Below, piece after piece: positions 33,148-33,678 of a DNA stretch of 64,000 nucleotides; within the stretch, counting starts at the first letter, position 1; every line of letters begins with the position of its first letter. Both the position numbers and the translations under genes were made by a program. Under the pieces are notes generated by a model. It was given only the letters and a program-made list of their open reading frames with translations, searched no databases and was not told where the DNA came from. The DNA lies in the NCBI GenBank assembly GCA_039796615.1, contig JBDKJL010000038.1, positions 78,033 to 142,032 on the forward strand, written 5' to 3'. Origin of the DNA: Candidatus Parcubacteria bacterium (lineage in GTDB: Bacteria; Patescibacteriota; Patescibacteriia; 2-12-FULL-60-25).

Positions 33148-33678
33148 CATTTGTCCTCGTGTTTCCACGGGGGATGGACTATATCTTCATCCTGCAAGCA
33201 GGATGTGAGGCGCTTCCCCTTCCTTGTGGAAGAGTACTCCTTGCGGATAGTCTCTGAACCTTCCCTTGCGGGCTTGGCTGCTGATTACCGTTACGATTCG
33301 ATCGATCGCTTTAGGCTTCCAGCAATTCACCTCAAGTTTCAACCGACATTACTGTCGGAAGCTGCGTGATACCTGCGTGCACCTCTCGATGGCAATTGGC
33401 GCAAATGAGAGCGCATTTCGCGATCTCATTCTTGATGCGTTCCCACGATCTTGTTGAGCCATCCGCTGAGACACTGAAGTCTTTTTTGGATGGGTCGAGA
33501 TGGTGGAATTCAAGTGCTTGAGAACATTTATTGTACCCGCAAAGGGCACAAGCACCGCCCTTGTGGGCGATAGCAAGTTCTCGAAGACGCTTGCGTCGTT
33601 TTGCGACGGCCTTCTTGAGGTAATCGGCACGATCGGCATAGGTACGCTTGTCTTTCATGAAAAAAGCGTAACATGTCC
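33148..33678 (-). mobile_element. Group I intron (531 nt) carrying an HNH endonuclease ORF
   Basis: On the RNA strand I see the canonical core elements: P GAAUUGCUGGAAGCC (33328..33314), Q AAUCAGCAGCC (33286..33276), R GUUCAGAGACUAUCC (33259..33245) and S AAGAUAUAGUCC (33187..33176). P pairs with Q (UGCUG/CAGCA) and R pairs with S (GACUAU/AUAGUC). The 5' exon ends in U and the intron ends in G (..ACAAAUG). Confidence 0.85.
33332..33658 (-). CDS. Intron-encoded HNH endonuclease
   Basis: This 108-aa ORF has GGACALCGYNKCSQALEFHHLDPSKKDF...CALICANCHREVH, that is CxxC...HH...CxxCH, the HNH zinc-finger signature. The ATG lies 20 nt inside the intron. The last ~10 codons run into the predicted P1/P2 region. 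Confidence 0.85.
   Translation of the reverse strand: MKDKRTYADRADYLKKAVAKRRKRLRELAIAHKGGACALCGYNKCSQALEFHHLDPSKKDFSVSADGSTRSWERIKNEIAKCALICANCHREVHAGITQLPTVMSVET

Follow-up and report, generated by a model that had tools for sequence, protein, structure and literature searches.

The window analysed here, a 64,000-nt stretch of Candidatus Parcubacteria DNA (contig JBDKJL010000038.1), carries a split gene for tRNA-Asn(GUU) on its minus strand, at 33712..33107. The gene is interrupted by a group I intron of 531 nt (33148..33678), and the intron in turn contains an open reading frame (ORF; 33332..33658) of 108 codons plus a UGA stop, whose product has the motif of an HNH endonuclease. All features described below are on the same strand. 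The host is an ultrasmall member of the Patescibacteria with a genome of ~1.17 Mb that is 100% complete by marker genes. An earlier annotation of the locus, which we call the sequence-only reading, had placed the ORF in the P1 loop of the intron and had suggested that its 3′ end overlaps the internal guide and the P2 hairpin, an arrangement that would link translation of the nuclease to splicing. The locus was compared with related introns, with intron-less alleles of the gene, and with free-standing phage relatives of the protein.

The Only tRNA-Asn Gene Found Is Split by a Group I Intron

The 5′ exon (33679..33712) terminates ..GAGGACUGU at 33679, its last bases being CUGU with U35 at the end, and the 3′ exon (33107..33147) opens with UAAUCC at 33147 and finishes with CCA. 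The insertion point lies between U35 and U36. When the exons are joined, the anticodon loop reads CUGUUAA, and ARAGORN in intron mode reports the gene as tRNA-Asn(gtt), i(35,531). Both boundaries are set exactly by intron-less alleles in genomes of the same genus (e.g., L005), whose exons are nearly identical to those of the window; the 5′ exon is identical. Metagenome DNA contigs from two runs likewise join 33147 straight to 33679, and the interior of the intron is largely uncovered there. Intron-less alleles with exons identical to those of the window were seen in freshwater and lake metagenome contigs (runs X1 and X10), one of which stems from the run in which the window is best represented. 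Intron-bearing and intron-less alleles may thus coexist in the same habitat.

The remaining 48 tRNA genes of the genome cover every amino acid except Asn. The split gene is the only tRNA-Asn gene found, so removal of the intron is required for Asn decoding. Without intron mode, ARAGORN detects no tRNA in the whole 64-kb window, nor does it report a tRNA-Asn for the genome. The split gene escapes default tRNA finders, and the genome consequently appears to be without tRNA-Asn. Intron mode also returned a tRNA-His call with a 774-nt insert (C3:7454-8319) and a tRNA-Lys call with a 1256-nt insert (C13:3454-4805). Neither has a group I match and intact His and Lys genes are present; both calls are probably false.

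The intron matches the Rfam group I model RF00028 with 85.9 bits (cut-off 50, E 3e-22). In a search of the 1.17-Mb genome it scores 81.7 bits and is the only match. A covariance model of our own, R1, built from 54 ribozymes of relatives, gives the window intron 201.9 bits. The two strands of P7, AGACUA (33248..33253) and UAGUC (33177..33181), are invariant in the 54 sequences and match the Rfam consensus; the P7 region of group I introns forms the guanosine-binding site. The terminal G of the intron, G33148, adjoins the 3′ exon. Hairpins P8 (AUCCUGC-UU-GCAGGAU, 33189..33204) and P9 (33155..33172, with a GAAA loop) are supported by the Rfam match and by covariation. P3 is formed by UGAGGUG (33328..33334) and CGCCUCA (33206..33212), which correspond to alignment columns 36-40 and 225-229; three of its five pairs show compensatory changes in 13-22 of the 54 sequences, and the other two pairs are invariant. 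RNAalifold recovers 46 pairs from the same sequences, 41 of them with compensatory changes, comprising P3, P4, P5, P6, P8, P9, and one extra hairpin.

The extra hairpin resembles P7.2 (CUCUUCC-ACAA-GGAAGGG). It is accompanied by a P7.1-like hairpin, UCC-GCAA-GGA, that is visible in the alignment as CCC/GGG, CCU/AGG, and CUC/GAG variants, and both lie between P7 and the 3′ strand of P3 (P3′) at 33217..33247. The window and most relatives thereby depart from subgroup IC3, which has no extra helices at this position (33247..33217 in the window); the two hairpins are a subgroup IA-like feature, as a single trait. By eye, the P10 pairing appears weak. On these sequence comparisons the element is a group I ribozyme with a P1 helix, a core supported by covariation, and an invariant P7, and it is predicted to be self-splicing, a prediction that gains indirect support from its place in the sole tRNA-Asn gene found in a genome complete by marker genes.

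Pairing in P1 was counted in 80 distinct related introns. All 80 pair the exon bases CUGU (positions −1 to −4) with GCAG (33365..33362), and the U·G wobble that the sequence-only reading had recognized at the splice site is formed by U33679 and G33365. Position −5 stands opposite an invariant C, as G-C in 53 introns and as A·C in 23, the window among them, and position −6 is paired in 64. Pairing then falls away: positions −7 and −8 are paired in 12 introns each, and the G found opposite C at position −9 in 55 of the 80 is an isolated pair, three unpaired positions off the helix. The guide, GCAGCU (33360..33365), is 4-6 nt long by these counts, that is, GCAG plus two further positions at most. 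The guide of nine nucleotides put forward earlier is too long. Because the core pairs of P1 are invariant on both strands, they offer no possibility of a covariation test, and the real support comes from introns that have no ORF.

In eleven ORF-less tRNA-Asn introns, 217-336 nt in length, GCAG follows the splice site after 6-36 nt, versus 313 nt with the ORF in the window. Examples (with a slash at the splice site) are GGCUGU/GACACAAAAAAAC-GCAGCUUUUCCGAG.. (L101) and GGCUGU/CGAUAG-GCAGCUUUCCGUCG.. (L104); L015 is another. The short P1 loop of these introns identifies the ORF as an insertion in the P1 loop, where the sequence-only reading had put it. P2 follows the guide directly in the family, as a hairpin of 6-8 bp with a GNRA-type tetraloop. 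Its stem shows compensatory changes throughout, with four or more pair types at the four inner positions and 0-3 broken pairs among the 54 sequences, and folds agree. In the window it is CCGACA-GUAA-UGUCGG at 33343..33358, one position away from the 33357..33342 given earlier. With structure modelling, both P1 and P2 otherwise stay where they had been proposed. An 11-bp hairpin within the ORF (33432..33404), which aligns with the first hairpin of the Rfam model, was considered as P2 and rejected as not conserved. It has a z-score of −2.34, and 58% of cells pair in 72 relatives, compared with 45-48% in registers shifted by 1-2 positions on the partner strand. It probably arises from Lys and Glu codons that are complementary to Leu codons.

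The R1 model was also run against 151 genomes of the same class and found matches in 59, the lower-scoring of which are untyped and include other group I introns. The best 30 loci comprise seven tRNA-Asn introns with the ORF, 11 without it, and nine ORF-less introns in tRNA-Phe. The tRNA-Phe(GAA) introns (L110, L112, L113, L117, L118, L120, L121, L122, and L124) are 219-291 nt long, score 105-165 bits with R1, and apparently lie after U33; in GGACU/GAUUUUC-GGUCC.., for example, P1 is formed by GGACU with GGUCC. Two ribozyme cores occur at the one tRNA-Asn site (L015, L018, L127, and L128 versus the window), with near-identical guide and P2. The core with the two hairpins between P7 and P3′ and the core without them (L015, L127, and L128) are each found both with and without the HNH ORF.

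The HNH Reading Frame and Its Overlap with the Ribozyme

The ATG of the ORF lies 20 nt past the 5′ splice site. The 108-residue product (33658..33332) has the CxxC..HH..CxxCH signature noted by the sequence-only reading and matches the PHROG family 2255, "HNH endonuclease" (E 2.3e-31), and PHROG 3106 (E 8.5e-28). An alignment of 56 intron ORFs shows C37, C40, H52, H53, C82, C86, N88, C89, and H90 to be invariant and H94 to be nearly so; among them are the two CxxC pairs, the HH, and both N and H in CANCH. AlphaFold2 run on this alignment returned a model with a mean predicted local distance difference test score (pLDDT) of 87.7, which has an N-terminal helix (residues 7-32), strands at 49-53 and 82-86, and a helix at 87-94; the last three elements may form a β-β-α metal fold. 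The ORF is intact in relatives, and the median ratio of nonsynonymous to synonymous substitution rates (dN/dS) is 0.16 over 165 unsaturated pairs. Together with the invariant residues, this ratio indicates that the gene is kept by selection and is not decaying. The protein is a putative homing endonuclease. About 2,400 similar proteins of like length are present in public databases, labelled "HNH," "McrA," or "hypothetical," in line with the earlier remark that small HNH proteins of this type are annotated as orphans.

The last 11 codons of the ORF traverse the guide GCAGCU, P2 (codons 101-106), and J2/3, and the stop codon UGA (33334..33332) supplies the first three bases of P3. Since P3 pairs 33334..33328 with 33212..33206, the stop codon itself belongs to P3. 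The overlap proposed by the sequence-only reading is therefore real for the guide and P2 and extends through J2/3 into P3; the stop codon, which had been placed about 5 nt before element P, is itself the 5′ end of P3. The same arrangement was looked for in 74 ORFs of the family. Every one reads through the guide, with the stop 10-211 nt 3′ of it, and relatives stop in P2, J2/3, P3, J4/5, P5, or further, to beyond P7.

The frame over the guide, ACG-CAG-CUU, which encodes T-Q-L, is preserved in 69 of the 74 ORFs, and nine ribozyme bases, ACGCAGCUU, which include the guide, encode T98-Q99-L100 of the window protein. Free-standing phage relatives end ..CHREVHEGVTML*, ..CHREVEAGFTNI*, and ..CHREVHAGLIELNQ* (asterisk, stop), and these C termini align at the guide-encoded residues. 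As the phage proteins stop where the guide lies, T98-Q99-L100 corresponds to the native C terminus of the fold. Residues past L100 are translated P2 and J2/3, and their sequence and length vary freely among relatives. The structural prediction points the same way: mean pLDDT is 93 for residues 91-100 and 47 for residues 101-108, with residues 104-108 below 50, so that the variable tail is modelled as ending in disorder. ORF-less introns already contain ..AC-GCAG-CU.., which indicates that the ribozyme dictates the bases and that the nuclease gene was fitted onto them. As judged from sequence, the HNH gene is without a 3′ end of its own, and its reading runs to the first in-frame stop.

Distribution of the Family and Its Phage Relatives

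When one genome for each species was scanned with a protein pattern, at least 551 loci with relatives of the HNH protein were obtained. The species-representative genomes that encode them, also at least 551, are mostly from Patescibacteria, and some records are labelled Omnitrophota or Blastocatellia/Pyrinomonadaceae. The best 80 loci were typed. ARAGORN finds a split tRNA around the HNH gene at 76 of these, all with a CUGU 5′ junction and a G/UAA 3′ junction, which is tRNA-Asn(GUU); these loci share the intron context described by the sequence-only reading. Labels of Thr, Tyr, His, Ser, or Leu that ARAGORN assigns at related loci reflect ambiguous placement of the intron, as every one of those loci has CUGU/..G/UAA, which reads Asn. 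The one insertion site is common to records labelled Patescibacteria, Omnitrophota, and Blastocatellia/Pyrinomonadaceae. Within the genus, the intron is present in one (G002) of the 10 other genomes searched, and eight other loci are intron-less tRNA-Asn genes.

Free-standing relatives include phage proteins (from Bastille, CR3, RCIP0023, and Shigella phage Henu11) that share 55-67% identity with the intron protein over the HNH core and whose genes sit among tRNA genes. They differ from it in being longer (119-182 residues), in having an extra N-terminal region that resembles a zinc ribbon, and in ending right after ..HxGxTxL. Three of the seven phage HNH genes examined lie directly downstream of a tRNA-Asn gene: those of Bacillus phage Bastille (L130), Cronobacter phage CR3 (L131), and Klebsiella phage RCIP0023 (L133). 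The Bastille gene is placed between two annotated tRNA-Asn genes, which are 73 and 68 nt long. None of the four phage HNH loci scanned has a group I match, and the phage genes are outside introns. A further sequence, from the uncultured phage LR745208 (L132:10-1149), has a single 379-residue ORF with two tandem copies of the HNH module; the 3′ end of this ORF overlaps an oppositely oriented tRNA-like gene.

Free-standing HNH enzymes encoded in phage tRNA clusters have been studied in the F-Tfl enzymes of phage T5. It is an established idea that a free-standing endonuclease gene aimed at a given site can enter an intron at that site. The phage HNH genes near tRNA-Asn would be consistent with such a later move into an intron at the target site.

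Proposed Expression of the Nuclease and Comparison with Known Systems

The 20-nt leader of the ORF is the 5′ arm of a hairpin around the start codon (33635..33678). In the window this structure has a minimum free energy of −12.2 kcal/mol and a z-score of −3.23, and its stability was equalled by none of 200 shuffles. The AUG is paired in 56 of 74 folds of leader plus first codons; leader folds have a mean z-score of −2.74 against shuffled leaders, and 51 of 71 fall below −2. Each leader also beats foreign leaders, taken from introns with different coding starts, by 4.8 kcal/mol, an advantage that points to compensatory change in the hairpin. A Shine-Dalgarno-like motif is present in just 7 of the 74 leaders and is missing from that of the window. 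From these comparisons the start-codon hairpin is well supported.

The 5′ arm of the hairpin also resembles a promoter. The window has an extended −10-like element, TGT-TACGCT (33665..33673), 6 nt before the ATG, in the layout TGT-TACGCT-N6-ATG. In relatives the hexamer opposite the AUG conforms to TANNNT in 31 of 56 cases, 29 of which also have the upstream TG (TGnTAnnnT). TG occurs in 36 of the 56 leaders, compared with ~6% expected from base composition, and the spacing between hexamer and ATG peaks at 6 and 9 nt. The second codon is NCA in 42 of 70 ORFs, where the amino acid varies (P, T, A, or S). These patterns are suggestive of an internal promoter in the hairpin arm. Upstream of the tRNA gene is a separate promoter-like site, recognized by its match to the consensus, in which TTGACG and TATCCT are separated by a 17-nt spacer (33745..33773). 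It is the sole such match in a scan of 33000..33900, and shuffles average 0.4.

We propose that the precursor made from the tRNA promoter would remain untranslated, because the ORF has no Shine-Dalgarno sequence and its AUG would be enclosed in the hairpin that the 20-nt leader makes with the opening codons. With the start codon hidden in this way, the ribozyme would be free to fold and splice. The nuclease would come from a second transcript, initiated at or just before the AUG by way of TGnTAnnnT in the 5′ arm of the hairpin. This would be an essentially leaderless mRNA that is missing the hairpin arm and the 5′ exon, so that ribosomes passing over the guide and P2 would cost no tRNA production. 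The HNH protein would then nick or cut intron-less tRNA-Asn genes, leading to homing. The scattered occurrence of the intron in near relatives whose exons are almost identical, the recurrence of one insertion site in different phyla, and the free-standing phage kin next to tRNA-Asn genes lend this role indirect support. Taken as a whole, the reading of the locus as a mobile group I intron in the sole tRNA-Asn gene, with an HNH gene in its P1 loop that overlaps the guide, a separate transcript for the nuclease, and homing, is in our judgment probable. Its more specific form, an I-TevI-like design with two transcripts and a leaderless mRNA, with ACGCAGCUU serving both as guide and as T-Q-L codons in a gene captured from free-standing phage HNH genes already aimed at tRNA-Asn, is quite possible but stops short of probable, and we advance it tentatively.

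Several observations weigh against this proposal. The Pfam HNH model (PF01844) scores the protein at 21.2 bits, just under its cut-off of 21.4, but several close relatives do carry a precomputed PF01844 match. Foldseek found nothing in the PDB at an E value of 0.001 or better; the top matches are nearly all HNH nucleases (Cap5, Cas9 HNH, Gme HNH, and McrA) and are weak, with E values of 0.04 or worse. The window is GC-richer and its hexamer, TACGCT, is weak, matching the consensus at T1, A2, and T6 only, and the window AUG lies in the loop of the hairpin, not in the stem. As UAU pairs with AUG and UG with CA, part of the promoter-like signal is imposed by the hairpin, and the two cannot be cleanly separated. 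Facing the G of AUG is a U in 38 cases and a C in 18, a modest excess given AT-rich leaders, and because the sequences are related all such counts overstate their independence. The motif was judged by sigma-70-like rules that are assumed for Patescibacteria, and a look-up of RNA runs returned none that contains this stretch; the internal start site, leaderless translation, and splicing itself are predictions.

Some of these points suit a simpler account, in which the hairpin merely damps translation, low levels of nuclease come, during breathing of the hairpin, from the precursor or from the intron after excision, and the TATAAT-like arm merely results from pairing with AUG in AT-rich sequence. 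The pairing of UAU with AUG and of UG with the CA of codon 2 does explain part of the motif, the window hexamer is weak, and GC-richer relatives such as L004 are without a good −10 element. However, pairing requires neither a T at hexamer position 6, nor an A at position 4, nor the TG/CA combination, yet TANNNT and TG are as frequent as described above (31 and 36 of 56, respectively), and the 6- and 9-nt spacings would fit a start site at or beside the AUG. We regard this account as possible, if somewhat doubtful. Coupling of the kind suggested by the sequence-only reading, as a regulatory switch in which the tRNA precursor itself serves as mRNA for the nuclease and ribosomes on the guide, P2, and P3 block P1, so that each molecule is either translated or spliced, appears unlikely. 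Its premise stands, as nucleotides are indeed shared and all 74 ORFs read across the guide, and ribosomes that enter a group I core are known to impair its splicing (PMC3014915). The coupling itself fits less well with the rarity of Shine-Dalgarno-like motifs (7 of 74 leaders) and with an AUG sequestered in the precursor by a conserved hairpin, features that would keep the precursor untranslated. In addition, to translate the precursor often would come at a cost when this is the only tRNA-Asn gene found, and the scatter of stop codons among relatives, which ranges from P2 to beyond P7, is not what a tuned switch would suggest.

That the ORF is an inactive remnant of an old invasion, with its read-through tail as a symptom of decay, is very improbable. 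ORF-less tRNA-Asn introns outnumber ORF-bearing ones among the best 30 R1 loci (11 versus seven), and for a nuclease with site specificity the protein is very small. Against decay, the median dN/dS is low, at 0.16, all 56 aligned sequences keep the catalytic and zinc-binding residues, the fold prediction is confident, and ~2,400 similar proteins of like length exist.

The intron family is very common and is missed by routine annotation of tRNAs and genes. Recognizing the intron mends the annotation of tRNA-Asn and of the HNH gene in at least 551 species-representative genomes, mostly of Patescibacteria. The family supplies an HNH enzyme of ~100 residues that is presumed to recognize a tRNA gene, and it is a natural example of conserved protein residues and a ribozyme guide specified by the same bases. 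With many ORF-bearing and ORF-less versions at one site, the way in which an endonuclease gene settles in a ribozyme can be compared directly. The general understanding of group I introns and of homing is unchanged by the finding. A 2025 preprint reportedly describes introns of group I within Patescibacteria tRNA genes, the same kind of element in the same phylum. A literature search on tRNA-Asn group I introns, anticodon-loop HNH genes, and leaderless homing endonucleases, which did not cover that preprint, returned no description of the family. Lui et al. (2021; PMC8172020) mention briefly that group I introns can occur in the tRNAs of such genomes. Group I introns in anticodon loops, intron-encoded homing endonucleases, overlap of ORF and ribozyme, and control of translation by hairpins are already established. 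What is noteworthy here is a guide that always doubles as codons, the promoter-like arm of the hairpin, and the occurrence of kin of the nuclease beside phage tRNA-Asn genes.

Among known bacterial group I introns, that in tRNA-fMet of Synechocystis PCC 6803 also lies in the anticodon loop and has its own homing endonuclease, I-Ssp6803I. That enzyme is of the PD-(D/E)xK type and its host is tRNA-fMet, whereas an HNH protein and tRNA-Asn are involved here. The introns of cyanobacterial tRNA-Leu(UAA), Azoarcus tRNA-Ile, and Agrobacterium tRNA-Arg are ORF-less members of subgroup IC3. The ORF-less tRNA-Asn introns found here resemble these classical bacterial tRNA introns; the window ribozyme differs from them in its two extra hairpins between P7 and P3′ and in splitting the anticodon of tRNA-Asn between positions 35 and 36. 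HNH nicking endonucleases encoded in phage group I introns include I-HmuI, I-TwoI, and I-PfoP3I (PMC3428280). They are larger, and the introns that encode them are in protein-coding genes of phages; the likeness considered here is at the level of the HNH motif.

The nearest parallel in organization is the td intron of phage T4 with I-TevI, where a hairpin blocks read-through translation, the promoter lies in the 5′ part of the hairpin, and translation that is not blocked impairs splicing (PMC3014915). As in that system, and in those of I-TevII and I-TevIII, the endonuclease gene of the window is situated in a loop at the periphery of its group I intron, and a hairpin would hide its initiation region on read-through transcripts. 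I-TevI differs in having a Shine-Dalgarno sequence and a phage late promoter. Here, the HNH gene occupies the P1 loop of a tRNA intron, it has no Shine-Dalgarno sequence and is presumed to be translated from a leaderless mRNA, and its reading frame always runs through the guide.

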